From positions 406,284 through 470,283 of the forward strand of contig OZ246395.1 of assembly GCA_965230915.1 (NCBI GenBank): 64,000 nucleotides of DNA, read 5' to 3'. The position numbers and the translations under genes are program-made. Shown in pieces: positions 42,493-62,421 of the stretch. A model generated the notes under the pieces. That model was given only the letters and a program-made list of their open reading frames with translations. It was not told where the DNA came from and did no database searches. The stretch comes from an uncultured Candidatus Saccharibacteria bacterium (lineage in GTDB: Bacteria > Patescibacteriota > WWE3 > 2-01-FULL-39-13). Within the stretch, counting starts at the first letter, position 1, and every line of letters begins with the position of its first letter.

Positions 42493-43623
42493 TTAATTAT
42501 TAATAATTTCCAGTAATCTATTATATTTCGAAACTCTTTCGCCCCTAGCAGGTGATCCAAATTTTGTGTAGTCGGCTTTAGCTCCAATGGCTAAATCTGC
42601 AATGAAGTCATCATTTGTGTCGGTTCCTCGATGAGAAATAATGACTCTCCAATTTGATTCTTGAGCTTGCATAATAACATCTAGTGTTTCTGTTAATGTA
42701 CCTATTTGATTTGGTTTTACTAAAATAGAATTACCTACGTCACGCTGAATACATTCTCGTAATGTCTTTATATTTGTCGTGGTTAAATCATCTGTTACTA
42801 CATTTATTTTATCTTTGTATTTTCGCGAGAAACTTTCCCAGCTGCCCCAGTCATTTTCAGAATAAGGGTCTTCGACCGAAATTATTGGAAATACGTCAAG
42901 CATAGTCTCGTAATCGGGGATATCTGCCGGATTCTTAATTTCGCTGGCTGCAACATCTAGAGCAATTTTTGCTCCATTTAGATGAGCATTTAGAAATTTG
43001 AGTGTTTTAAAGTTGTCAAAACCTTCAGGTGAAAATGCTCCTTCTGCTCCTACATTAGTTGTTTTGCCGGCCTCTTGAAGTGCTGTTTTAACTTCATTGT
43101 AGATTTTTGCGCCTTGGCCAACAGTATCAACTACGGCCATAAATTCTTGAATCGATGCTCCGCTATCTCCATGAACTCCACCTTCGAAAATAAGCATGAG
43201 CATTTGTGGCATTGTAAAAGTAATTTCGTCGAGTGAAATTTCAGGTTCAACAATCGTGTGAATGTATTGATATGTTTCTATCTTTTTAGATTTAGCTGTG
43301 GCTTTGCAAAATGCAATTGATAATGAGAGCAATGTGTTTCCGCCTAAATTGGATTTATCGTGTGATCCATCAGTTTTTATCAAAAGTTCATCGAACTGCC
43401 TCTGAGATGAAAAATTTACACCTATTAGTTTATCTTTTAGAGTTTCAATATTTTCAATCGCATTTTCAGGTTCAATTGAAACAACTTCGCGTTCACCGCG
43501 GGAGATTCCTCCGGGTACCGATGCAACGCCAATAGATCCATCTTCTAGAGTGATCTTAGTTTCAATGGTCCATTTAGCTCCGGAATTTAATATTTTTCGA
43601 CTGGAAATATCTTTGATTATCAT
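42493..43623 (-). CDS. eno: enolase (short form, 376 aa)
   Basis: It has ILVKPNQIGTLTET, ISHRGTDT and a Mg-binding pattern. Confidence 0.9.
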   Translation of the reverse strand: MIIKDISSRKILNSGAKWTIETKITLEDGSIGVASVPGGISRGEREVVSIEPENAIENIETLKDKLIGVNFSSQRQFDELLIKTDGSHDKSNLGGNTLLSLSIAFCKATAKSKKIETYQYIHTIVEPEISLDEITFTMPQMLMLIFEGGVHGDSGASIQEFMAVVDTVGQGAKIYNEVKTALQEAGKTTNVGAEGAFSPEGFDNFKTLKFLNAHLNGAKIALDVAASEIKNPADIPDYETMLDVFPIISVEDPYSENDWGSWESFSRKYKDKINVVTDDLTTTNIKTLRECIQRDVGNSILVKPNQIGTLTETLDVIMQAQESNWRVIISHRGTDTNDDFIADLAIGAKADYTKFGSPARGERVSKYNRLLEIINN

Positions 43624-46387: not shown

Positions 46388-47767
46388 TTATGATTTTATC
46401 AGGTTTTCAACCTCTTTTACTTTTTCATCAACCAAATTTTGGGATTTTGCTTCTACATTTAAACGAACAACCGGTTCGGTATTTGATTTTCGTAAAGAAA
46501 ACCTCCAGTCGCGGTCTGAATCTACTGCAACTCCATCAAGTTTATCTATTGGAAGCCCCGCTTCTTTATAATGAGCTTCGACTTTTTCTAAAACTTCATT
46601 GGCATCTTCAACTTCGTAGTTTATTTCTCCACTAATAAAGTATTTTGATTTGTATTCGGCTAACATTTCGCCCAGCGACTTACCTGAATCTTTGATAAGT
46701 TCAAGAATTAGAGCAATTGTTAGAGCTGAACTATCTGCGTAATATAAATCTTTATAAAAGAAATGAGAGCTGGTTTCTCCACCAAATACTGAATCGATTT
46801 CGCGCATTTTGGCTTTTAGAAATGCGTGTCCTGCAATATATTCGACTGGAATTCCACCTGCCGCTGTAACCGTATCTTGAATCGCCCATTTTAAGCGGTT
46901 TTCGTGCACTATTTTTGCATGCGGGAATTTTTCTAAGACTTTTTTACCTAAAAGACAGATTATAAAGTAGCCCAAAGAAAATTCGCCCTTTTCGTCAATA
47001 AAGAAGCAACGATCTGCATCACCATCTAGAGCAATTCCCAGGTCGGCTTTTTCTTCGATAACTCGGTTTTTTAAGTCGGCAACATTTTCTTCTTTAATTG
47101 GATTTGCTTCATGGTTTGGAAAAGTTCCATCGGGTTCAAAATACATCGGAACGACTTCTAAATTTGTTCCGCCAAATACTCGCTCGAACATTTCACCGCC
47201 CATTCCATTTGCAGCATCAACTACAACTTTTAATTTTGGAAGTTCGTGTAAATTAACGATTTCATGAATCGCCTCGCGAAAAGGAACATACGGATCTAAA
47301 TCACGAACCTGAATTTCCTTTTTTAGCATTTCATAGTTTTGTTTTGCTACAAAGTCACGAAAATCATACATTCCAGTGTCAGCTCCAACTGGAACTGAGC
47401 CTTTTGTTACCATTTTGAATCCGTTGTATTGTTTTGGGTTATGAGAGGCAGTAATCATTATTCCAGCCTCTAAGCCGAACTTTCCGACTGTAAAATACAT
47501 TACTTCTGTTGGAACACGACCTAAATTTACTACTAGCGCATCGGCATCGGCGATACCTTGAGTAAGTGCTTCCCACATAGATGGGGATGAAATACGCATA
47601 TCGTAACCGACTGCAACTTCTTTGACTTTAAAATAATCTACAAATGCGCGGCCTACTGCATATGCAGTATCTTCATTTATTTCATCGGGAAAAACACCTC
47701 GAACATCGTATGCTTTAAAAATTGATGGATTAATTGGTGTCATATGTTTGCATTCTGCACAATGCAA
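46388..47767 (-). CDS. phosphomannomutase/phosphoglucomutase (alpha-D-phosphohexomutase)
   Basis: It has the active-site TASHNP motif and four-domain length (459 aa). Confidence 0.9.
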   Translation of the reverse strand: MHCAECKHMTPINPSIFKAYDVRGVFPDEINEDTAYAVGRAFVDYFKVKEVAVGYDMRISSPSMWEALTQGIADADALVVNLGRVPTEVMYFTVGKFGLEAGIMITASHNPKQYNGFKMVTKGSVPVGADTGMYDFRDFVAKQNYEMLKKEIQVRDLDPYVPFREAIHEIVNLHELPKLKVVVDAANGMGGEMFERVFGGTNLEVVPMYFEPDGTFPNHEANPIKEENVADLKNRVIEEKADLGIALDGDADRCFFIDEKGEFSLGYFIICLLGKKVLEKFPHAKIVHENRLKWAIQDTVTAAGGIPVEYIAGHAFLKAKMREIDSVFGGETSSHFFYKDLYYADSSALTIALILELIKDSGKSLGEMLAEYKSKYFISGEINYEVEDANEVLEKVEAHYKEAGLPIDKLDGVAVDSDRDWRFSLRKSNTEPVVRLNVEAKSQNLVDEKVKEVENLIKS

Positions 47768-47836: not shown

Positions 47837-48586
47837 ATGGTTTTAAACATAAATAAGCCTCTTGGAATCACAAGCTACGACGTTATTCGAAGACTAAAAA
47901 AGCAATACCCAGGAGAAAGAATTGGTCACGCAGGAACGCTAGACCCTTTGGCTGAAGGTATTTTAATTTGCCTTGTAGGCAAACAAGATACCAAGCGCCA
48001 GTCAGAATTTATGGGAGTTGTTAAGGAGTATGAGTATGAAATGGTATTTGGATTCGACACCGATACTTATGATGTTTTAGGTCTTGTTAATGCTTCAAGA
48101 GAATATACTCCAAATGACATTGAAGCAAAAATAAAAAATAACCTGCAAACTAGAAAATTAAAACAGAAACTTCCGCCATTTAGCGCATCTAAAGTTAACG
48201 GAAAACCTTTGTACCGTTGGTATCTTGATGGACAAATTGATCGAGTGGAGATTCCCGAAAATAATATTGAAGTTTTGGAACACGAGTTGATGTCCACCAA
48301 TGTAGTTTCAAAATCGGATTTGCACGTAAAAGTTAATGAACTTGTTAACTTGGTTAATTCACGTTTTAGAAAAGATCAGGTTTTAAAGTCGTGGGAAGAA
48401 ACTTTATCAAATACTAATCAGACAGAATTTTTGACGGCCAGACTTCGCGCGAAAGTTTCAAAAGGAACTTATATTCGTGGATTAGCTAATGATTTAGGAA
48501 ATAAACTTGAAACAGGTGCGTGCACCTTAACTATAAAGCGCACGCAAGTTGGAGATTTTAAAATCTCTGATTCAGTTTCAATTTAA
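47837..48586 (+). CDS. truB: tRNA pseudouridine(55) synthase
   Basis: It has the catalytic Asp motif HAGTLDPLAEG. Confidence 0.9.
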   Translation: MVLNINKPLGITSYDVIRRLKKQYPGERIGHAGTLDPLAEGILICLVGKQDTKRQSEFMGVVKEYEYEMVFGFDTDTYDVLGLVNASREYTPNDIEAKIKNNLQTRKLKQKLPPFSASKVNGKPLYRWYLDGQIDRVEIPENNIEVLEHELMSTNVVSKSDLHVKVNELVNLVNSRFRKDQVLKSWEETLSNTNQTEFLTARLRAKVSKGTYIRGLANDLGNKLETGACTLTIKRTQVGDFKISDSVSI

Positions 48587-51417
48587 TTATTCGAGCTTAA
48601 CAAGTTTGTAAGCTTATAGAAGTTAATAACTTCTGGAGATGTTTTAACTTTTGTTGCAACGCCATTCGAATTTAAATCATTTGAAATAATAAAGTTATTA
48701 GAAGCCTTATCTAAAAGGTAAATTGCAGTTTTATTATTTGTAATTGAATTCAAGCTAATTTCATTGTCGCTTGTTTTAATATATGCGGCATTTGTATTGT
48801 CAGCTAATACGTTAGATCTGAAAATATTTCCGTTTGAATTTCCATAAACATAAATTCCGTGTCGGCTACTTCGCAGAACTTCATTATTAAGAACATAATT
48901 TTTGCCGCTATCTTCGTTTAGACGAATGCCATTTACGCTATTATTTACTTTGTTTCCTTCGATTAGATTTCCAGTAGAAGCCCAAATTGCGATTCCATCA
49001 TTATTATTTTCTATGATATTGTTGCGCACGATATTATCGTTTGAAGCCATATGCAACATTATTCCATGCAGCTTATTATCGCGTGAAATATTATTAACGA
49101 TTATATTGTTGTAGCACCTTTTTGAAAAAATAATTCCATGTATGCCATTTCTTTCAGCAATATTATTTTCAACAATAAAGTTATTCGAATCGTCATGTGG
49201 ATCTAGACCGTATACAACGTTGTCGTTAAATTTATTGTTTTTCCAGACGATTCCGGTAGCCCCATAAGTATATGCTCCAAAATAATTATGGTGATAATTA
49301 TTTCCGATTGATTCTCCTGTCGAAACATAGTGAGGATATGTTCTGGATGGGATTCTCCATGAAACTCCGTATGTTCCTCCTGCAGTTGTTAAATCTTTTT
49401 CTTTATAACCGAGCCAAGCCATTTCTGAGTTATAAATATCAAGTCTAGAATTTGCCTTCATTAAAACATAGCTTCGGCCATCATTATATTCTTCGTCGAA
49501 ATTATTTTTGTCGGTATCCCAGGAAGTTACTTTTGTATCCCGAATTGTTAAACGGCCATTATATCCAATTAAAGTCGCAAATCCTGAAGTGGTACTTTTC
49601 ATTTTTAGCCATGTTACATCTGGCGAAACGATATCTAGTGATGTTCCGCTTTCCATATATATATTTGCAGATAAAACCCATATGCCATCAGATTCTTTGG
49701 TTAAATGTGTATATCCGTCTTTCGCAGCAATGTCAGCAATTGTGAATTTGTGTCCGCGACCGGAAAGATAAATTGTATTAGTTGCCGCATCATATCTTTG
49801 TCCTCTCGCAGTTGGAGTTTTTCTTTGGTAATTGAACATTGTTAAAGGTTCATATTTAACCGGTTTAAGTGGAATAGTCAAAATATCTCCAGGGTTTACA
49901 CGGTCCCAGTTTGGCAAAATTGGGAAATTGAATTTCACAATCTCGGAAACAGGAATATTATATTCAGCAGCAATCTGTGAAAGGCTTTCGCCACCTTTTA
50001 CTTCGCGGCGAATTAAGCTTGGAGATGTATCAAGTTTATTTAATTCGTCTAAATTTGCAGAAATATCTTTAGTGGTAAGAGCTGAATCTTCTTTTAGATT
50101 TTGAGCAATTGTCATTCGAGCAGCATTAGCTTTCACTTCCATATCATGAAAGTGAAGATAAGGAATTGATGCAACAGCAATTAAGACATAAGCAGTATAA
50201 ATGTATGCTCCAGCTGTATTAATAATATTGGTTTTGCTCATTCTAGAAATATCCCAGCGTGTTAACCAACCTTGTGTTCTGATAGTTATTAAAGCAAAAA
50301 TACGTATTACGCCTGACCAGTATGAATAAATAATATAAGTAGGAATATGAATTATATGCATCGGATATCTTTTTAAATGTGGATATACTTTTATAGTACG
50401 GGTAATTAACCACCAAGCCAAAAGTACCGCAGCTGAAATAAAGTGTCCGTATGCTAATGAAATTGCAAAGAATGCAAATCCGTAAACCATTGTAAAAGGA
50501 GCAATAAATCTATCTACCAAAAAGAATAATAGATGTGGGTGTTTGCGAATCCATTTGCTACTAAGTGCTTTAGTGTCTGCTCTCCAGCTATTTCGTGCCC
50601 AACGAATTTTTTGTTTTGCGAATGTTTGAAAATCTTCTGTTCCTGGTGTTAATACAACTGCATTTTTCTGATAAACAGTTTTCCATCCGTCTGCTTGGAC
50701 TAGATTTGTTAAGCATTTATCATCACCGCTAATTGATTTCTTCCCCCAGAAATGTTCGTTTGTAAGTTGGTCGAGTAATGGTTTTACAGCTGAAGTTCTG
50801 TAAAATGCAGTTCTTCCCGATAAGCATGAAAGTGCATTTCCCATTCCAGATAAATATGGCATTTCGTCGAAGTAACGAAGGTCTAAAAGTATATCGAATA
50901 AAATTCGAGTTAAAGTATTTGGATTAGTAACGTTTTGCCTTGTTGCAACTCCTCCGACTTTTTCGTCAGCAAATGGAGCAAGTGCATTTTTCATAACCCC
51001 TTCTGTCCATTCTGTATCACTATCGATAAGTGCAACAATTTCATATTTTGCAAGTTTCATTCCTGTTGCTAAAGCTTCTCGTTTTCCGGGGATTTTTGTA
51101 ATTTCTAAAACTCCGTTTTTATATTTTTTCTGAAAGTCTTTAAAAACTTTTATCGAAGATTCGTCTGTATAGTCGATAACAGCAATAATTTCTGAAGGTT
51201 TTTCTTTGGCCCAAGAATCTAGCGCTTTTCTAAATCCAATTGGATCTTCATTATAAACTGGAGTAATAACCGAAACTTTTGCATTATATTCTGTTGTTTT
51301 TACTTTGTAGTAAAGGTGGCCACAGATTTTTTTGTATCCCCAGACGCTCCAGCGCCATAATCCAATCAAACCTATTGGAAGATACTCAACATAAGGAATT
51401 TCAGAGAACGATATCAT
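48583..51417 (-). CDS. fusion protein: processive GT2 polysaccharide synthase, TM helices, LysM domain and a right-handed beta-helix with a DPHD motif (mannuronan C5-epimerase-like)
   Basis: The GT2 part has VITPVYNE, IDSDTEW (DxD) and QKIRWARN (Q-x-x-R-W). Several TM helices follow. The LysM domain is GGESLSQIAAEYNIPVSEIVKF...GDILTIP. The PbH1/CASH repeats are NNIxxNxxHGI..., with GLDPHDDSNN. Confidence 0.8.
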   Translation of the reverse strand: MISFSEIPYVEYLPIGLIGLWRWSVWGYKKICGHLYYKVKTTEYNAKVSVITPVYNEDPIGFRKALDSWAKEKPSEIIAVIDYTDESSIKVFKDFQKKYKNGVLEITKIPGKREALATGMKLAKYEIVALIDSDTEWTEGVMKNALAPFADEKVGGVATRQNVTNPNTLTRILFDILLDLRYFDEMPYLSGMGNALSCLSGRTAFYRTSAVKPLLDQLTNEHFWGKKSISGDDKCLTNLVQADGWKTVYQKNAVVLTPGTEDFQTFAKQKIRWARNSWRADTKALSSKWIRKHPHLLFFLVDRFIAPFTMVYGFAFFAISLAYGHFISAAVLLAWWLITRTIKVYPHLKRYPMHIIHIPTYIIYSYWSGVIRIFALITIRTQGWLTRWDISRMSKTNIINTAGAYIYTAYVLIAVASIPYLHFHDMEVKANAARMTIAQNLKEDSALTTKDISANLDELNKLDTSPSLIRREVKGGESLSQIAAEYNIPVSEIVKFNFPILPNWDRVNPGDILTIPLKPVKYEPLTMFNYQRKTPTARGQRYDAATNTIYLSGRGHKFTIADIAAKDGYTHLTKESDGIWVLSANIYMESGTSLDIVSPDVTWLKMKSTTSGFATLIGYNGRLTIRDTKVTSWDTDKNNFDEEYNDGRSYVLMKANSRLDIYNSEMAWLGYKEKDLTTAGGTYGVSWRIPSRTYPHYVSTGESIGNNYHHNYFGAYTYGATGIVWKNNKFNDNVVYGLDPHDDSNNFIVENNIAERNGIHGIIFSKRCYNNIIVNNISRDNKLHGIMLHMASNDNIVRNNIIENNNDGIAIWASTGNLIEGNKVNNSVNGIRLNEDSGKNYVLNNEVLRSSRHGIYVYGNSNGNIFRSNVLADNTNAAYIKTSDNEISLNSITNNKTAIYLLDKASNNFIISNDLNSNGVATKVKTSPEVINFYKLTNLLSSNN

Positions 51418-52312
51418 CTGCTTTCTCCTCTACATTTACGGGCGTGCTTTGTTGAATAAGTCTGTTGTTAACTTCGACTGTAGCTCTTAAATGAATAGGA
51501 TCGTGTCCTTGGCTTTCGGCCCAGGTTAAAAATCCTTGCGTATCTTTTGGTAAGCAAACTCCTCCGAATGGACCCATGTCTTTTGTTCCATATTTCGGAT
51601 TCCAAAGTGCCTCTGCACTCTTTGTTACCAAATCAAAAACTTTTTCAGTATCTAGTTTTAGGGATTTTCCAATTTCTCTCATTTCATTAAAGAAAGAAAT
51701 TTTTGCAGCGTTCAATAAATTATGAACATATTTTTGGAATTCTGCTTCTTCTATTGTTAATCGATGAACTTCAGGAGCAAAGTCTTTATAAACTTTTTGC
51801 AAGATTTCAAAAGATCTGTCATCGTAAGCTCCGACAACTACAATCCAAGGGTTATCAAAGTCTTCAACTGCTTTATATGCTCGTAAATATTCCGGATTCA
51901 TACAAAGTCCAAAATCTTCGCCGACTTTTTTGCCTGAAACTTCTTCAGCTTTTTTTGAAAGTTCAACTGTTGTTCCTGGTGGAAGTGTGCTTCGTGTAAC
52001 TATAACTTGATAGTTTTTGTTATTTTTTATGACAACTCCAAGTTCTGCGACCGCACTTTGTAAATATTGAAGATCTACACTTTTATTTACAGTCGGAGTT
52101 GGGACCGCTAAAAAGTTTACGATCTCCTCACCTTTTTTGTATTTTGTGGATTTTAATTCTTCAGCGGAAATTGCCTTATAGCCTTCTGCTTTAATTTGCT
52201 CAATTCTAATCGGATTAACATCAACGAATGTGACGTCAAATCCACGTTTGAGGAATCCTCTGCCTGTAGCATAACCAACTACTCCTGAACCGATAACATT
52301 TATTTTGATCAT
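51401..52312 (-). CDS. UDP-glucose/GDP-mannose 6-dehydrogenase family protein, C-terminally truncated (303 aa)
   Basis: It has GSGVVGYATG (Rossmann fold), VPTPT, NPEYLR and the catalytic Cys in FGGVCLPKD. It stops about 45 aa after the Cys, so it has no nucleotide-sugar-binding C-terminal domain. It overlaps the GT2 start by 17 nt. Confidence 0.75.
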   Translation of the reverse strand: MIKINVIGSGVVGYATGRGFLKRGFDVTFVDVNPIRIEQIKAEGYKAISAEELKSTKYKKGEEIVNFLAVPTPTVNKSVDLQYLQSAVAELGVVIKNNKNYQVIVTRSTLPPGTTVELSKKAEEVSGKKVGEDFGLCMNPEYLRAYKAVEDFDNPWIVVVGAYDDRSFEILQKVYKDFAPEVHRLTIEEAEFQKYVHNLLNAAKISFFNEMREIGKSLKLDTEKVFDLVTKSAEALWNPKYGTKDMGPFGGVCLPKDTQGFLTWAESQGHDPIHLRATVEVNNRLIQQSTPVNVEEKADDIVL

Positions 52313-52363
52313 ATATTTGAAATTGATTTAGGCAGTGAAATCTTTTGGAGTGTATCACCCGAA

Positions 52364-53758
52364 TTATTTTTCAGTCAATAATTTTATGTCGAATTTCTTA
52401 TTTGTTGTTGAAGTTCCTTCGGTTGGTTGTTCATATACGATATAAAAATTATTATCATAATTATTTTTCGCGGCTAAATGAGGATAGTAAATATTTTCTC
52501 CTAATAAAATTTTGTATGTAAACTTATTTTCGAGCGAGTCGAACTTTGAAAAATATCCTTTAGAATCGATCGGGTCTTCTCTCGGGAATTCACTCTTATT
52601 TTGGTTTTCTAGCCAAACAATACCGACTTCATCATTTTTATTTGTTCCGAGTACAGGAAAGAACTGATAGGCATCACTTTCTAATACCGTTTGAGGCTTT
52701 GTCCAATTGCGGTTTTCTAAGATAGAAAAATATAATTCGGCTTTATCATCAACATCACTTCTCCAAGTCGCAATGATTTTGTCATTGTATTTTACGGCGG
52801 ACACATGACGTGAGTCATCAAACCCATTACTTATGTTTTTCCAATCGCTCCATGTTTCACCTTTATCATAAGAAATTGCGTGCCAGATTTGTTGGTCATT
52901 GCTTTCACGGCTTGAATAGAAAAATAAATTTAAATTATTATTAGAATCCAATAATAAATATGGTCGGGATTGAGTGTTATTCGGACTTGTATTAATGTTT
53001 TTCCATTGTGACCAAGTTTTACCACCATCATTTGATTTTATAAATTTAGCTTGCTGGTTTCTATTTTCCGAATCCTTCCCTTCCCAAACTATGTAGAGGT
53101 TGTCGCCTTCTGTTAGTATCTGCGGGTGCTCCTGCCAGTAATCTTCATCATCAGTGTATCCTTCAACTAAACTTGGAATAGTTGGTTTCGACCATGATTT
53201 TCCGTTATCAATGGAGCGAATATACTTAACCTGTCGACCATTATTGCTGCCTTCAGTAAGGCCATACCAAACTACATGAATTGTGTCGTTTTGATCTACC
53301 GCAATCGATGGAACGCGTTGGGTTGCCCCATCTGAATCAGTTACGACTTTATTGGATATTAATTTACCGTTTTTTGATTTAGATATATATATTTCGAAGT
53401 CTTCTTTAGTTTTTGCTCTGTAAGCTGTAAAGATTTCGCCGTTACTATTTATCGCTACTTTATCCTGACCCGTATATCCTAAGCCTTTATTATCATCAGT
53501 TGATCCTACTTTTACGATTTTGCCTGATGGGCTTGATTCCTTAATATAATCGTTCGGGCCGGTTGTTAATATTTGTTCTACTGTTTGTGAAATATCCGAA
53601 AATTCGACGGGGGAATCAAAGTCTTTATTAGAAAAAGTCCGGTACATAAGCGCCGAAACTACTATTATTGGAGCAAGAGCTACTGGTATATAAATGAAGC
53701 TCCACTTGAATTTGGGCATAACTTTAATAACTTTAGCCCGTAATCTAGGTGATTTCAA
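52364..53758 (-). CDS. BNR/Asp-box repeat protein (sialidase-like beta-propeller), N-terminally membrane-anchored
   Basis: It carries repeated S-x-D-x-G-x-T-W motifs: SIDNGKSWS, SNDGGKTWS and SYDKGETWS. Confidence 0.7.
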   Translation of the reverse strand: MKSPRLRAKVIKVMPKFKWSFIYIPVALAPIIVVSALMYRTFSNKDFDSPVEFSDISQTVEQILTTGPNDYIKESSPSGKIVKVGSTDDNKGLGYTGQDKVAINSNGEIFTAYRAKTKEDFEIYISKSKNGKLISNKVVTDSDGATQRVPSIAVDQNDTIHVVWYGLTEGSNNGRQVKYIRSIDNGKSWSKPTIPSLVEGYTDDEDYWQEHPQILTEGDNLYIVWEGKDSENRNQQAKFIKSNDGGKTWSQWKNINTSPNNTQSRPYLLLDSNNNLNLFFYSSRESNDQQIWHAISYDKGETWSDWKNISNGFDDSRHVSAVKYNDKIIATWRSDVDDKAELYFSILENRNWTKPQTVLESDAYQFFPVLGTNKNDEVGIVWLENQNKSEFPREDPIDSKGYFSKFDSLENKFTYKILLGENIYYPHLAAKNNYDNNFYIVYEQPTEGTSTTNKKFDIKLLTEK

Positions 53759-53885
53759 CGATTTTATTATATGAATTACCCTAAAATGGCAAAAAAGGCT
53801 GATTTGGCGGCTTTAAAAATTAGGCTTATGAATGCTATAATATTTCGGTACTTTTAAGTGGGTTCCCACATTTTTTCCGCTTCGC

Positions 53886-53962
53886 GGGCCAGTAGCTCAG
53901 TTGGTTAGAGCACCTGCCTTTTAAGCAGGGTGTCGAAGGTTCAAATCCTTCCTGGCTCACCA
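53886..53962 (+). tRNA. tRNA-Lys (anticodon TTT)
   Basis: A cloverleaf was folded by eye. The acceptor is GGGCCAG/CTGGCTC, the D-arm is GCTC/GAGC, the anticodon stem is CCTGC/GCAGG with loop CTTTTAA, and the T-arm is GAAGG-TTCAAAT-CCTTC. A CCA end is present. Confidence 0.85.
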
Positions 53963-53968
53963 TTTAAT

Positions 53969-56113
53969 CTAATTAACTTTGATAGTCTTAATCTCGGACT
54001 TATTCCCTGCTCTATCTTTTATATATACATCAAAGACATATTTCGAGCCGTTAATATCTGCCGGCAATGTGCAGGTAAAATTACCCTCATCCTCTAAGCC
54101 GCAAGATAAATTTGTGAATTTAATAGACTTGTCTGCATTATAAATATCAATATTTAAGGTACCCTTATCATTTGAAGACCCTTCGATATTTAAAGTTTTA
54201 GATGGACTAATTTTGATAGTAACTGCGTTTGTTATATTTTTAGAGTTTATTTTTGATATTGTAAATTCTGTTGGAGTTTTAGTATCGACAGTAAACTTAT
54301 ATATTTCAGATTTAACAGAAATATTAGTCGCATCAATAGAACTTATATACCATTCATATTTCCCGTCTTTTAAATTAGTAAATGTATAATTTGTTCGATC
54401 TTTATCTGTGCTGGCTATTCGGTTAAAAGTTTTATCTTTTCCAATTCGCTTAAGATGAATATCATACTTTACGGCTGCTGTAACCTTATTCCAAACTACA
54501 GTTACATCATCTGATTTGCTGTACCCATTATTTAAAGTTGGGTATTGTTTCTTCTCGCGGCCGCTACTATCTTCATAGGAATATTTTTTCTTAGTATTTG
54601 TTATTGCCGTTGCTCCTAAAGATGCAGCATCAGAATCTTCTAATCTTAAGAGATAACCATCATAATTATCATCAATATTGGGTTCTCTAGTATCCCCACC
54701 TAGATAATGGTTGAAGTCAGTTTCTTTTGAGAATGCGCCTGCTGCATATATGTATCCATTTTTTTCATTAAAATCTATTGATTGAACCAATGATCCGGCC
54801 TCTTCACTATAGTAAGAATGAACCCATCTGAAATTGCCATTTTCATCGAGAGCAAGAATATAACCAGCCCTGGCATCAGCATCGTATATTGCGTCAGATG
54901 GACCCGGGTCAAAATCCATAAACAGGTTATAATTGCTCCCCAGGTATACATTGCCGTCGCTTGTGACTGCCATGCTTTCCAAATTTTCTACATCATCAGT
55001 TCCGTATGTTACAGTCCATCTATATGTGCCGTCTGTAGAAAATTTACTAACATATACATCTGAATTAGCAGGTTCAGCAACCGTATGTATATCTTCGCTA
55101 TCTGTAGGATCAAAATCTATATAACCAGATCTAATGTATCCTCCACTATATACATTTCCTTTATTATCAAGCCTTACAAGTTGAGGAAGGTCATTCCCAG
55201 TACCCCCAAAAGTTTTGCTCCAGATAAAATTTCCATTGGAGTTATACTTAACCAAAAACCCATCCAGGCCGCCATTTGAAGTAACTGATGATGTACCTGG
55301 AGTTCCATCTAGATCTGCGCCATCAGAATACGAACCGACAGCATAAATGTATCCGTTCTTATCAATTGCTACGCCATAAACATAATCATTGTCTAGCCCA
55401 CCTAAAGTTCTTGTCCATTTATAATTGCCATCTTTATCGTATTTGGATATGAAACCTTCATAATTCTCTCCTGTAAGTAAATCTATACCTGATGTAGCAT
55501 CCATATCTATATCGATTCCACCAAAATCTCCGACAAGATAGATATTATCGCCATTCTGATCAACAGCTATGTCACTTGGTTCTACCACACCAGTGTCATA
55601 AGCTTTATACCAAAGCAAGGTGCCATTCTTATCATATTTAGCAAAAACAAGTGCTGCATCATCATTTGGTGTTACATTCGTTGTGCCTGAATTTGGATCA
55701 AGATCGAAAGTCCCATCAAAATAAAATGCTATATATATATTCTTATTTTTATCAACTGCTATGCGCGTAGAATTAGCATCCCCGTCGCCAATTATTCCTT
55801 TTGTCCAAATTTCATTGCCATTTTTATCAGTTTTACTAATAAAGACATTGTATCTGGATGTCACAGCAGTCAAATTATGAACTCCAGAACCCGGATCAAA
55901 ATCCGTTGTTCCTTTAAATCGTCCCATGGTCACAATATTTTCATCGGAATCGTGGGATATTCTTTCGAAAAAAGTTGTATCTGTTCCCGGATATGTTTTT
56001 GTAAAATTATATTTATGGTTGTCAGCGGCAAGTACCGGTTTAGTCATATAAAATATGGCGAGGATTAGAATAAATATTGCGGATAAAAATCTTTTGGCAG
56101 AAAGAAAAAGCAT
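53969..56113 (-). CDS. secreted SBBP-repeat (beta-propeller) protein with C-terminal Ig/Fn3-like domains
   Basis: It has a signal peptide and repeated D.NGN..W...GG..D..VA.D..GNIY..G and DFDPG.G units. Confidence 0.65.
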   Translation of the reverse strand: MLFLSAKRFLSAIFILILAIFYMTKPVLAADNHKYNFTKTYPGTDTTFFERISHDSDENIVTMGRFKGTTDFDPGSGVHNLTAVTSRYNVFISKTDKNGNEIWTKGIIGDGDANSTRIAVDKNKNIYIAFYFDGTFDLDPNSGTTNVTPNDDAALVFAKYDKNGTLLWYKAYDTGVVEPSDIAVDQNGDNIYLVGDFGGIDIDMDATSGIDLLTGENYEGFISKYDKDGNYKWTRTLGGLDNDYVYGVAIDKNGYIYAVGSYSDGADLDGTPGTSSVTSNGGLDGFLVKYNSNGNFIWSKTFGGTGNDLPQLVRLDNKGNVYSGGYIRSGYIDFDPTDSEDIHTVAEPANSDVYVSKFSTDGTYRWTVTYGTDDVENLESMAVTSDGNVYLGSNYNLFMDFDPGPSDAIYDADARAGYILALDENGNFRWVHSYYSEEAGSLVQSIDFNEKNGYIYAAGAFSKETDFNHYLGGDTREPNIDDNYDGYLLRLEDSDAASLGATAITNTKKKYSYEDSSGREKKQYPTLNNGYSKSDDVTVVWNKVTAAVKYDIHLKRIGKDKTFNRIASTDKDRTNYTFTNLKDGKYEWYISSIDATNISVKSEIYKFTVDTKTPTEFTISKINSKNITNAVTIKISPSKTLNIEGSSNDKGTLNIDIYNADKSIKFTNLSCGLEDEGNFTCTLPADINGSKYVFDVYIKDRAGNKSEIKTIKVN

Positions 56114-56217
56114 TAATAAAATTGTAACAATTGAAATATTTAAGTCTATATAGTGAATTATGATAATCGATCTAGAATTTTAGATCTTGCCATTTAAAAT
56201 AGTTTATACAAATCAAC

Positions 56218-56886
56218 CTATTTATTTGTTTTGAAAAGTATCGTTATATTTTCACCGTAAACTTCTGAGGTAGAATCACTCATGGAATCAACTTTTTTAG
56301 CTGGTTCATCGAAATTTTTCCCACTGGAAGTATTAAAATTGGTCTTCACTGATTTAATTTCAAAGGAGTTACCTTCAGCCGGTTGATCAAAGGTATCGAT
56401 CAGCTCTATATGTTTTTCCCCTTTGTTTAGAGTGCCACACTTTACCTTTGTATCCCTACCCTCAGGTCTGTCATATGCAGTATGAGTGAACTTAACATCA
56501 ACAGTAACTTCTACTGCCGTTTTTTCTTCTATGTTTTCAACTAGGATAAAGACTAAATTTTTATTTGGTGGATCTGCTCGTTGAAAATCATTAATTAAAT
56601 TACGGACATTATCTTTTGTGGCCAAAATGGGATATTTAGAAATAAACGCATCATCAATTTTGCTTGCTAAAATAAATTTAACTTTAATGTAAGGAAGTAC
56701 TTCACTATGAATTGTATGCAGAAGAGTTTTATAAGTAAGATATACGAAGACTAAGGTGAAAACAGCATTTATCACACCATCGTATCTAGAAAATTCATCT
56801 ATACTTCTCCACGCAAAGTAGGCTAGTGATAGTATAGCTAAACCTAATATTATTTCTGGGAGGTTGCTTTTAAAGTTCAATTTCAT
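56218..56886 (-). CDS. hypothetical membrane protein (222 aa)
   Basis: It has two N-terminal TM helices and overlaps the upstream ORF by 17 nt. Confidence 0.35.
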   Translation of the reverse strand: MKLNFKSNLPEIILGLAILSLAYFAWRSIDEFSRYDGVINAVFTLVFVYLTYKTLLHTIHSEVLPYIKVKFILASKIDDAFISKYPILATKDNVRNLINDFQRADPPNKNLVFILVENIEEKTAVEVTVDVKFTHTAYDRPEGRDTKVKCGTLNKGEKHIELIDTFDQPAEGNSFEIKSVKTNFNTSSGKNFDEPAKKVDSMSDSTSEVYGENITILFKTNK

Positions 56887-57190
56887 CCCTCCCGCTAAAA
56901 TTGTCCGTCTTACCTTTCAATTCATCTACGGCACTTTTTATTCTCGATTTTAGAAGCTTGATGAAATCCTCTGCGCTTTGTTCATCAGAAAATTGAAAGC
57001 TTGTATTTAGGCTTGTAACGGGGATTACGCTTCTCGCCCGTCCGTTATAATATATAGTTTCTGGCGCTATCGATATAGAAGGCGCTCCGAATCTTTTCAC
57101 ACGATCAATTTCGTCTTCCGAATACTCTGTTATCTCGACATTAACTAGATAGCTGCCAGCTTTTAAGTTTTTTTCTATTACAACCTTCAT
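56870..57190 (-). CDS. hypothetical protein (106 aa)
   Basis: ORF only. It is co-oriented and overlaps the next gene. Confidence 0.3.
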   Translation of the reverse strand: MKVVIEKNLKAGSYLVNVEITEYSEDEIDRVKRFGAPSISIAPETIYYNGRARSVIPVTSLNTSFQFSDEQSAEDFIKLLKSRIKSAVDELKGKTDNFSGRDEIEL

Positions 57191-57255
57191 AATTTACATA
57201 TATATTATGCATTTTAATCGCGTTACTACAAGCCCTTCATGATTTTAGGAAATTT

Positions 57256-58521
57256 TTATTTCACCACCACACTCACAGCCGAAGGCATCTTAGACTCGCC
57301 TAACTCGCTGTCCTCATCATTTTGATACACAGCAGATACTTTATAAGAATATGATCCTGCAGGTTTTTGAACTGTTGCGTCAGTATTTGTTGAGATCAAA
57401 ACATATTTATAATCTGATGACGATGTCTTTTCATAAATTTTATAGCCAATTATTTCGGCGTCGTCTTCGCCGGGAGCTGCTTTCCACGAAAGTTTTATTC
57501 CACCTGCAACGGCTGACCATTTAAGATTTGTTGGCTTTTTGTAATCTCCAACTTTTAAACTTGCGAATCTTTCATCAAATGCATCATCTGTAATTACAAT
57601 TTGTTCAGGTTCAGTAACTTCTGATTCTGTAGTGTTTTCAGTTTCAGAAACTTCACCAGATGTACCTGCTCCATTTCCGGTACATGTTCCATTATGACAA
57701 ACTTGTAATCCATAAATTGTTACTTGTGCAAAATCGCATTCACCTGCATCAGGTCCATCGGTAAGTTTTGTGCAATTATCGCCCGATTGGTTGTATGCTC
57801 CAGCTTTAAAATAAGCGCCGCTAAAGGTTTTATTTTTAACATATGGAAGGTCTGCTCCATTGTATACGTAATTGATTTTTCCATTTGATACTTTAAATCC
57901 TATCGAGAATTTGTGCCCTAAAGCATAACTATTTGTTACTAAATATCCATGGGTCGTATCGCCATCGGTGATCCAAATGCTATTTAGATTGCCATCACCT
58001 GTGTTACCTCCATATTTATTTGATTCGATTCTAAAGACAGTTACATCGTCATCCGAATCATGAATTTGCCCGGCAACTACAACCGGTTTATCGCCAATTG
58101 GTAAGATGTCTACAGATTGTTCGATAATCATTGAGTGATTTCCGGAAGTCGAAGACCACGATGCGTTATCTTTTCCATCATTTTTCATTTCTCGAAGTTC
58201 CGACCTCGGATTATTAGAACCTGAGGTCGTTTCGCCATCTGTTCGAACCTTAAAAACTACCCCATTTGCAGCTTCATTTAGATAAAACCACTCGTCTGCA
58301 TAAGTTTTTAGGCTTGGTGATGAGCTTATTTTAATCTCTTTGCCGTCATCGATCGGTAAAGTTAGTTTCCAATTTTTGGATCCGATAAGGTCCATCGGGT
58401 ATGTTATGCTGGCGTCAGATTCCTTCGGCATTTTTGAAAATGCAATGAATGCAATAATCGATAGTATTACAGCTCCAATGACTAAAAAAATGTTCATTAG
58501 CTGACTTGTCGCAATTTTCAT
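57256..58521 (-). CDS. PL7 family polysaccharide (alginate/polyuronate) lyase with an N-terminal membrane anchor and a C-terminal Fn3-like domain
   Basis: All three PL7 signature blocks are present in order: RSELREM, QIH (AGQIHDSDDD) and YFKAGAYNQ. Confidence 0.8.
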   Translation of the reverse strand: MKIATSQLMNIFLVIGAVILSIIAFIAFSKMPKESDASITYPMDLIGSKNWKLTLPIDDGKEIKISSSPSLKTYADEWFYLNEAANGVVFKVRTDGETTSGSNNPRSELREMKNDGKDNASWSSTSGNHSMIIEQSVDILPIGDKPVVVAGQIHDSDDDVTVFRIESNKYGGNTGDGNLNSIWITDGDTTHGYLVTNSYALGHKFSIGFKVSNGKINYVYNGADLPYVKNKTFSGAYFKAGAYNQSGDNCTKLTDGPDAGECDFAQVTIYGLQVCHNGTCTGNGAGTSGEVSETENTTESEVTEPEQIVITDDAFDERFASLKVGDYKKPTNLKWSAVAGGIKLSWKAAPGEDDAEIIGYKIYEKTSSSDYKYVLISTNTDATVQKPAGSYSYKVSAVYQNDEDSELGESKMPSAVSVVVK

Positions 58522-58552
58522 ACCTATATAATAGCAAAATATATGCGCTTAA

Positions 58553-58975
58553 ATGTCAATTTCTGTTAATATAAACCCATCAGTTAATTTTATTGCTATG
58601 AATCCAACAGACCATCTAAAAGCTGCACGCATATTTGCAAAAACGATGGATAACCAGTTCCAGATCATGGGAATCGGAATCGGTATAGACAGCATCATCG
58701 GTCTTTTTCCATGGGTCGGAGATCTTCTTTCTATGGTTCTATCTTTTTACCTTGTATGGATTGGCGTTCAAATGAAGCTTCCTGCGGATAAAATTGGGCA
58801 AATGATAATGAACATAATTGTAGATACAGTTATTGGATATGTCCCAATTCTCGGAGATGTAGCCGATGTATTTTATAAGGCCAATATTAAGAATTTAAAA
58901 ATTCTTGAAGACTTTGCCAAAAGCAGTAATAACGGAATTATTGAAGGTGAAATTTTAGAACAACCTGCTAGTTAA
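58553..58975 (+). CDS. DUF4112-family membrane protein
   Basis: It has the GIDSIIGLFPWVGD motif typical of DUF4112. Confidence 0.6.
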   Translation: MSISVNINPSVNFIAMNPTDHLKAARIFAKTMDNQFQIMGIGIGIDSIIGLFPWVGDLLSMVLSFYLVWIGVQMKLPADKIGQMIMNIIVDTVIGYVPILGDVADVFYKANIKNLKILEDFAKSSNNGIIEGEILEQPAS

Positions 58976-62344: not shown

Positions 62345-62421
62345 GGCCCCGTCGTCTAGCGGTTTAGGACATCAGGTTTTCATCCTGAAGATCGCGGGTT
62401 CGAATCCCGCCGGGGTCACCA
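62345..62421 (+). tRNA. tRNA-Glu (anticodon TTC)
   Basis: A cloverleaf was folded by eye. The acceptor is GGCCCCG/CGGGGTC, the anticodon stem is TCAGG/CCTGA with loop TTTTCAT, and the T-arm is GCGGG-TTCGAAT-CCCGC. A CCA end is present. Its layout parallels E. coli tRNA-Glu. Confidence 0.85.

Follow-up and report, generated by a model that had tools for sequence, protein, structure and literature searches.

Domain architecture of the fused protein

The window analysed here is a 64,000-nucleotide stretch of contig OZ246395.1 (assembly GCA_965230915.1, positions 406,284 to 470,283 of the forward strand) from an uncultured Candidatus Saccharibacteria bacterium of the WWE3 lineage, and it looks like normal chromosome, with a G+C content of about 35% and genes for repair and glycolysis. 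One open reading frame (ORF) on its minus strand encodes a 944-residue protein made up of a glycosyltransferase of family GT2, four predicted membrane helices, a LysM domain and a β-helix (Table 1), and the plus strand of the same segment is riddled with stop codons. Judged by sequence and modelled fold, the protein is a predicted fusion of a polysaccharide synthase to an AlgG-type epimerase in a single polypeptide.

Pfam GT2 models cover residues 48-276 (E = 4.7e-25), Beta_helix/NosD models cover residues 704-936, and LysM is found at residues 473-516 with 28.3 bits against a gathering cut-off of 20.9. The best NCBIfam models were AlgG (1.3e-36, residues 558-834) and NodC (2.3e-28), the latter being the best model for the GT2 part. 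An AlphaFold2 model was built from 70 homologues, with a mean predicted local distance difference test score (pLDDT) of 90.9, and an alignment of 70 sequences also underlies the homologue checks given below unless stated otherwise. Helices were modelled at residues 9-36 and, after the GT-A domain, at 263-287, 294-322, 326-343 and 352-377, followed by a poorly ordered loop (378-397) and a long helix (398-440). The LysM fold is present in the model as β-α-α-β (strand 468-472, helices 479-485 and 490-497, strand 512-516), and residues 539-935 form a β-helix of about 15 coils. The top Foldseek match was AlgG (4NK6, E = 5.6e-18, TM-score 0.68 on the target), AlgE4 and AlgE6 also matched, and the hyaluronan synthases (HAS) of Chlorella virus and Xenopus came just behind AlgG, with TM-scores of 0.63-0.67.

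An earlier reading of the DNA letters alone (the original prediction) had proposed one polypeptide with GT2, membrane helices, LysM and β-helix, and the ORF, Pfam and the AlphaFold2 model agree with it, the gene lying on the minus strand. The DSD, QKIRW and GLDPHDD motifs that it named are all present (the first within IDSDTEW at residues 131-137, the second at 269-273 and the third within YGLDPHDD at 736-743), and its count of at least six PbH1-type repeats is borne out by a modelled β-helix that is far larger.

Table 1. Features of the synthase-epimerase gene and of its surroundings in the 64-kb window.
Feature	Position	Strand	Residues, motifs and remarks
Whole ORF, with the synthase, LysM and epimerase-like parts on one chain	48583..51417	-	944 residues
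N-terminal membrane helix	51310..51393	-	9-36; conserved IGxxGxWRWS, common to Alg8 (IGAVGIWRYS); AlphaFold2 model
Cytoplasmic GT2 (GT-A) catalytic domain	50548..51276	-	48-290; Pfam and motifs
GT2 motifs			GKR 111-113; IDSDTEW 131-137 (DSDT 132-135); CLSGRTAFYR 198-207; GDDK 231-234; QKIRW 269-273
Two membrane helices and interface helix, predicted translocation channel	50287..50538	-	294-377; AlphaFold2 model
Cytosolic gating loop	50227..50286	-	378-397; GWLTRW, invariant W384/T386/R387/W388
Sole membrane helix after the gating loop	50158..50226	-	398-420; carries the chain outside
LysM domain	49870..50016	-	468-516, preceded by a helical linker (421-467); Pfam, AlphaFold2
Extracytoplasmic right-handed β-helix related to AlgG	48613..49803	-	539-935; AlphaFold2, AlgG alignment
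YGLDPHDD	49189..49212	-	736-743; matched in alignment by DPHD of the AlgG active site and by YGFDPHE of AlgE4
HGIIFSKRC	49114..49140	-	760-768; invariant H760, G761, S765, K766, R767
Short NDP-hexose (nucleoside diphosphate-hexose) 6-dehydrogenase	51401..52312	-	303 residues; overlaps the synthase start by 17 nt
Membrane-anchored BNR_2 β-propeller protein	52364..53758	-	recurrent neighbour, 22-23 of 82 loci
tRNA-Lys(ttt)	53886-53962	+	between the BNR and SBBP genes
SBBP-repeat/Big_13 surface protein	53969-56113	-	714 residues; between the BNR and PL7 genes
Two small ORFs without family matches	56218-56886, 56870-57190	-	between the BNR and PL7 genes
Membrane-anchored PL7 lyase	57256..58521	-	RSELREM, QIHD, YFKAGAYNQ; fn3-like C-terminal domain (326-405)
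tRNA-Glu(ttc)	62345-62421	+	
Phosphomannomutase/phosphoglucomutase	46388..47767	-	possible precursor supply; adjacent in 3 of 82 loci, this lineage only

The synthase half

The original prediction took the GT2 domain for a processive synthase, and the motifs expected of such an enzyme were all found, namely DxDT, GDD(K), QxxRW and a WGTR-type gating-loop motif, together with a predicted membrane channel fold. Alignment to the Chlorella-virus HAS (E = 1.6e-18) matches LIDSDT, GDD(R/K)xLTN, QxxRW and WGTR, and the AlphaFold2 model superimposes on Xenopus HAS1 with a root-mean-square deviation (rmsd) of 4.7-4.8 Å over about 460 columns and on the Chlorella-virus HAS with a TM-score of 0.66 on the target. 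The Gly of the HAS gating motif is replaced by Ile, Leu, Lys or Val in this family, in which both QxxRW and WxTR are kept in 72 of 72 long copies from related loci. According to a previous study, this glycine (G455) is essential in the Chlorella-virus HAS (PMC11750622).

The comparison with Alg8 was made with NCBI proteins named mannuronan synthase, which are 83-92% identical to the query that served for their retrieval, and only the retrieved sequences were used. BLASTP against P. aeruginosa Alg8 gave 22% identity over 349 residues (55 bits), a match that takes in the N-terminal helix motif (LPIGLIGLWRWSVWG vs LLIGAVGIWRYSMGG), and hhalign matched the family to Alg8 over 353 columns, beginning in the N-terminal GxWRxS helix and reaching the gating-loop Trp, at a probability of 97.8% (E = 1e-12). 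The GT2 half is thus a homologue of Alg8 and about equidistant from HAS and Alg8 in sequence, and its predicted helix layout resembles that of Alg8. As for the label of hyaluronan synthase, which some sources give to this GT2, it was rejected in view of the helix count, GDDK and the gating motif.

Structural work on HAS showed that QxxRW sits on interface helix 2, and that the WGTR-type gating loop, which connects interface helix 3 with membrane helix 5, enters the cytosolic catalytic pocket (PMC11750622). A single hydrophobic helix follows the gating loop in essentially all 70 family members, and Lys and Arg residues concentrate in the loops predicted to be cytosolic. On these grounds, the N-terminus should lie outside and helix 1 should run inward, with GT2, interface helix and gating loop inside and two membrane helices between GT2 and the interface helix. 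The last helix should run outward, and LysM and the β-helix should therefore be outside, because the gating loop is cytosolic and only one helix comes after it. This is the arrangement with GT2 inside and β-helix outside that had been proposed, to which the cytosolic gating loop (by homology to HAS), the one helix behind it and the Lys/Arg distribution all point.

The epimerase-like half

Residues 560-856 align with Pseudomonas syringae AlgG (4NK6/4OZZ) at E of about 1.5e-27, with 28% identity and 51% similarity over approximately 300 columns, and the alignment takes in "dn+vyg+dphd s" and "hgii.s(k/r)". The A-modules of AlgE4 and AlgE6 match as well, at 1e-6 to 1e-7, from four residues before the motif, so the DPHD region aligns with AlgG and AlgE4, the comparison that the original prediction had called for. 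The AlgG counterpart of K766 in the alignment is the Arg of "HGIIISRE", reportedly the carboxylate-neutralising Arg345 described by Wolfram et al. in 2014. DPHD is the proposed active site of AlgG, and its mutation yields non-epimerised alginate, while catalytically dead AlgG still shields nascent alginate from degradation (PMC4436075).

Conservation and distribution of the fusion

A protein search recovered the same full-length architecture in at least 544 protein clusters at 43-74% identity, which came, where the source was named, from Microgenomates-type candidate phyla and Saccharimonadales and bore generic annotations. In addition, 228 relatives were found when a single genome of each species was scanned, and they occur in Microgenomates, WWE3 and Parcubacteria lineages and, at 38-41% identity, in Caldilineaceae (Chloroflexota). 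The domain order of the fusion is constant in more than 500 sequence clusters from two phyla.

In the synthase half, D132, D134, C198, G201-R202-T203, G231, D233, K234, Q269, R272, W273, W384, T386, R387 and W388 are invariant in the 70 homologues, and so are Y736, G737, H741, D742, D743, H760, G761, S765, K766 and R767 in the β-helix. The catalytic motifs are not a matter of chance, since they are invariant among sequences whose identity to the window protein is only 42-74%. The scan of related loci used patterns that included YG[LF]DPHDD, and the share of motif-intact copies there (68 of 72) is consequently biased upward. An unbiased search with the C-terminal half returned 330 representatives at E up to 1e-30, the best 150 of which were classified as 15 GT2 fusions and 135 unfused forms, the latter comprising stand-alone LysM plus β-helix proteins, giants built of several modules and a single protein in which the cassette is joined to a PMT_2 membrane glycosyltransferase. 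The DPHD motif is intact in nine of the 15 fused representatives of 50% clusters in this search, and the window protein falls in this motif-intact majority.

Among the unfused forms (within P0361-P0510, e.g., P0369, P0364 and P0362), the stand-alone proteins are about 450-550 residues long, and the giants, one of which comes from Chloroflexales, have 1.2-3.6 thousand residues with two YGxDPHD modules. Motif-degenerate sister clades are represented by P0370, P0386, P0400, P0410, P0415 and P0433 and by loci L065 and L046. Three loci (L013, L022 and L027) carry two synthase-epimerase gene copies each, with DPHD intact in both.

The adjacent short dehydrogenase

A gene for a short NDP-hexose 6-dehydrogenase adjoins the synthase gene in 67 of the 82 related loci that were covered by the neighbourhood counts, mostly on its upstream side, where the two genes either overlap or lie a few tens of bases apart. 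These neighbour dehydrogenases have a median length of 303 residues. Only the NAD-binding and the central catalytic (Cys) domains are found in the window copy and in all of its 120 best homologues (278-349 residues), and the whole C-terminal nucleotide-sugar-binding domain of about 130 residues is missing. GxGxxG, T109, E141, K194, N198, C253, K256 and D257 are invariant in 64 neighbour dehydrogenases, and this catalytic set indicates that, as far as can be read from sequence, the protein is an intact Cys-dependent alcohol-to-acid oxidoreductase without the usual nucleotide-sugar-binding domain. Frameshift or decay to a pseudogene was considered as the cause of the short length and rejected, as a length of about 300 residues is kept in the 64 neighbours and the 120 best relatives with invariant catalytic residues. 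No separate ORF for a C-terminal domain recurs near the dehydrogenase gene in the related loci.

The best match among solved structures by sequence was P. aeruginosa AlgD (1.4e-38), with an archaeal UDP-glucose dehydrogenase close behind (1.9e-36). The AlphaFold2 model of the dehydrogenase (pLDDT 91.5) superimposes on AlgD with a TM-score of 0.86 and an rmsd of 2.3 Å, compared with 10-12 Å for UDP-glucose dehydrogenases, and its domain arrangement is accordingly predicted to be AlgD-like. It has been speculated by us that the dehydrogenase docks on the synthase. A conserved dehydrogenase that has no nucleotide-sugar-binding domain is an enzymological puzzle in itself.

Genomic neighbourhood

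A PL7 lyase is encoded within a few kb of the synthase in 23 of the 82 loci. The catalytic domain of the window enzyme matches the polyguluronate lyase 1UAI with an E of 2.9e-48, and QIH is kept in 25 of 26 PL7 neighbours. The BNR_2 protein, which shows weak Asp-box similarity to sialidases, also has counterparts in Caldilineaceae loci (L052 5385-7181 and L053 7299-8723). Other lineage-specific neighbours are a protein with fn3 and C-terminal membrane helices (28 loci, e.g., L022 4855-5673), an anchored β-helix protein of 392 residues (23 loci, e.g., L016 12098-13276) and a sortase (13 loci, e.g., L050 13920-14495). The link of the phosphomannomutase gene to this system is weak, because it is a neighbour in so few loci.

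The recurrent counterparts of alginate genes in the 82 loci are confined to a truncated AlgD, Alg8, AlgG and a lyase, which is of PL7 and not of AlgL type. PilZ/Alg44, an outer-membrane porin and acetylation genes were not among the recurrent neighbours identified, although no search was aimed at Alg44/PilZ. From its gene content, the locus is taken to function as a pared-down version of the alginate pathway that falls outside the canonical operon family.

The tRNA-Lys gene separates the BNR, dehydrogenase and synthase genes from the surface-protein and PL7 genes upstream, and it probably marks the upstream end of a BNR-dehydrogenase-synthase operon. A scan of positions 48000-58800 for promoters and terminators gave the same counts as shuffled sequence. 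On the other side of the synthase gene, a short truB (47837-48586, plus strand, 249 residues) is convergent with it, and the 3' ends of the two ORFs share 4 nt. Farther away, an enolase ORF (42493-43623, minus strand) has 376 residues compared with the usual 430 or so and matches Pfam Enolase_C in two stretches, so that it may be shortened. A run of DNA-repair genes at 15757-39793 (RecG, MutL, MutS, UvrA, UvrB and LexA) represents ordinary housekeeping.

Proposed pathway and alternative explanations

Taken together, we propose that the locus encodes a minimal machine for an alginate-like polyuronate, suited to a single-membrane cell and with synthase and epimerase in one chain, a reading to which a probability of roughly 55% is assigned. 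An alginate-like pathway is the most economical explanation, because AlgD, Alg8 (tied with HAS), AlgG and a polyguluronate lyase are the best or near-best characterised relatives of the components. The co-transcribed short Cys-dependent NAD dehydrogenase would oxidise a nucleotide-hexose to the corresponding hexuronate, and its likeliest substrate and product are GDP-mannose and GDP-mannuronate. The cytosolic GT2, whose motifs and fold are those of a processive synthase, would then polymerise the uronate and push the chain through a channel formed by its own helices. The chain may emerge beside the last helix, where the tethered β-helix, with its conserved motifs, is expected to abstract H5 and re-protonate the sugar, so that part of the uronates on the emerging chain would become C5 epimers, i.e., mannuronate would be turned into guluronate. 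LysM would hold this module at the peptidoglycan, and the anchored PL7 lyase, related to polyguluronate lyases, may trim or clear the polymer. The product is thus probably an acidic capsule polymer that is made, exported and remodelled by one protein, and the identity of its sugars, as put forward here, is deduced from the relatives of these enzymes.

The original prediction that polymerisation, export and modification are coupled in one protein remains the best reading, because the topology, the AlgG/AlgE alignment of the DPHD region and the gating motifs of the GT2 agree. Its further suggestion, in which LysM points to a mixed polymer of uronate and amino sugar and not to alginate, is disfavoured by the AlgD match, the similarity of the neighbouring PL7 enzyme to a polyguluronate lyase and the Alg8-specific features of the GT2; LysM is more plausibly a peptidoglycan tether than the sign of an amino-sugar product.

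Several observations weigh against the alginate-like pathway. The topology is a prediction from homology and hydropathy. For the same core, the family profile scores the Chlorella-virus HAS at 85 bits and Alg8 at 67-77 bits, and phmmer gives 69.7 bits for the former versus 40-46 bits for the latter; relatives are annotated as "hyaluronan synthase" and, in the case of the dehydrogenase, as "UDP-glucose 6-dehydrogenase". The absence of the nucleotide-sugar-binding domain makes the substrate of the dehydrogenase uncertain. The β-helix scored 126.4 bits with the AlgG model of NCBIfam, the equivalog cut-off of which is 700, and by that cut-off it is classed as a relative and not as an orthologue of AlgG. 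Six of the 15 fused representatives have all GT2 motifs and a degenerate DPHD/HGIIxSKRC, which suggests that the β-helix of the wider family serves a non-catalytic purpose as well. Finally, the PL7 and BNR neighbours are each present in only about one quarter of the loci.

The closeness of the GT2 to HAS raises the question of whether the synthase makes a hyaluronan-like or other glucuronate polymer (e.g., of glucuronate and N-acetylglucosamine) from UDP-sugars, the glucuronate of which would be turned into iduronate by the β-helix. In essence, this is the mixed uronate/amino-sugar product of the original prediction. HAS gave the best scores among solved structures, NodC is the best NCBIfam model for the GT2, the signature motifs of HAS (DxDT, GDD(R/K)xLTN, QxxRW and W-x-T-R) are present, the dehydrogenase is nearly as close to archaeal UDP-glucose dehydrogenases as to AlgD, and a LysM domain is there. 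This possibility is nevertheless regarded as unlikely, as the three other components best match alginate enzymes, namely AlgG, polyguluronate lyase and the domain arrangement of AlgD. Moreover, GDDK and a gating motif without the Gly that the Chlorella-virus HAS cannot lose are as in Alg8, the helix layout is Alg8-like and not HAS-like, and LysM is more simply explained as a wall anchor. To our knowledge, there is no AlgG-type β-helix that acts on glucuronate.

The fused representatives that keep the β-helix and have lost DPHD and HGIIxSKRC bear on its function as well. Abstraction of H5 is common to epimerases and lyases of the β-helix fold, and AlgE7 combines the two activities, so the domain might mainly be a lyase that sets chain length, or else a non-catalytic guide that shields and hands over the emerging chain. 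The loss of motifs in fused relatives echoes the protective role that even dead AlgG retains (PMC4436075). Such a role as the main one is rated as still less probable than a glucuronate product, however, since the invariance of Y736, G737, H741, D742, D743, H760, K766 and R767 at 42-74% identity speaks for catalysis having been kept, the motif is that found in epimerases (AlgG and AlgE4), and a separate PL7 lyase is often encoded nearby. It could also be imagined that the LysM/β-helix part acts on foreign material in the episymbiosis typical of these bacteria, such as a host wall or exopolysaccharide, and that its fusion to the synthase is incidental, as LysM binds peptidoglycan-type glycans and the cassette is unfused or part of giant surface proteins in 135 of the best 150 representatives. 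That is very improbable, for the fusion occurs with the same domain order in over 500 clusters across two phyla, it is closely linked to a uronate-forming dehydrogenase, and an incidental fusion would not be expected to last at 40% identity.

A more specific version of the alginate-like polyuronate pathway is offered only tentatively. Candidate phyla radiation (CPR) bacteria and some Caldilineaceae might make a true mannuronate/guluronate capsule with a core of two genes, an Alg8-like synthase-epimerase and a docked dehydrogenase that hands over the uronate directly, in which the docking would probably follow from the loss of the nucleotide-binding domain. If this holds true, alginate biosynthesis would extend well beyond Pseudomonas, Azotobacter and brown algae, and nature would offer a single-chain model for the coupling of synthesis to modification; epimerase fusions might also help to engineer alginates of defined guluronate content.

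Significance and comparison with known systems

Synthase-dependent exopolysaccharide systems, such as those for alginate, cellulose, Pel and poly-N-acetylglucosamine (PNAG), have been studied as multi-protein machines, and the coupling of modification to polymerisation is still argued, e.g., for Alg8/Alg44/AlgG/AlgX (PMC4436075). A single-chain synthase-epimerase, predicted with high confidence, would be a compact target for cryo-electron microscopy and for reconstitution of that coupling. If an alginate-like pathway is indeed present in hundreds of ultra-small Patescibacteria, it would bear on the surface layer of episymbionts and on host attachment. In an earlier survey, the predicted alginate operons were largely those of Pseudomonas species (PMC7112194), and we found no description in the literature of a synthase/C5-epimerase fusion or of alginate-type genes in CPR bacteria, nor anything relevant on hyaluronan synthases or alginate lyases of this group.

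The full set of the canonical alginate operon (algD-8-44-K-E-G-X-L-I-J-F-A), with Alg44, AlgK/AlgE export and AlgI/J/F/X acetylation, does not recur in the loci studied here. AlgD (1MFZ) is the best sequence and structure match of the short dehydrogenase, which keeps the catalytic Cys, Lys, Asn and Asp set but lacks the C-terminal nucleotide-sugar-binding domain. The PL7 enzyme resembles the polyguluronate lyase of Corynebacterium sp. ALY-1 (1UAI) throughout its catalytic domain and has RSELREM, QIH and YFKAGAY-x-Q, whereas an N-terminal membrane anchor and the C-terminal fn3-like domain are additions of the window enzyme. AlgG (4NK6, 4OZZ) shares with the C-terminal half the right-handed β-helix, about 28% identity, YG-x-DPHD and HGII-x-S-(R/K), and is its top structural match; however, AlgG is a soluble periplasmic subunit of a two-membrane multi-protein complex, while the domain described here is linked covalently to the synthase by way of a membrane helix and LysM, in a lineage apparently without outer-membrane parts.

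Class I HAS (Chlorella virus 7SP6 and Xenopus HAS1 8SMM) is the best sequence and fold match of the GT2 and channel, with DxDT, GDD(R/K)xLTN, QxxRW and the gating loop in common. Unlike HAS, this family has one N-terminal helix, one helix after the gate and an extracellular extension of 500 residues, and WGTR is W-(I/L)-TR. Similar to Alg8 (e.g., P0348), it possesses one N-terminal helix with GxWRxS, DxDT, GDDK instead of GDDR, xxxRW, a G-R-x-x-x-(F/Y)-R segment (SGRTAFYR here and TGRMSVFR in Alg8), RW-x-x-N-x-x-R and a W(x)TR gating motif without Gly that is followed by exactly one helix. The two differ in that identity is only 22%, LxxRW of Alg8 stands against QxxRW here, and Alg8, which has the PilZ protein Alg44 as its partner, stops about 40 residues past the gating motif.

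A synthase fused to a C5-epimerase has no published description that we could find, but a GT2 joined through one helix to an extracellular modifying domain is precedented in MatB, the PNAG synthase of Streptomyces, which was described as an intracellular GT2, one predicted membrane helix and an extracellular deacetylase (PMC5972031). In MatB the modifying domain is a CE4 deacetylase and the polymer is poly-GlcNAc, with no LysM or β-helix described, whereas the design principle, by that description, is the same as here, and likewise in a single-membrane bacterium (PMC5972031).

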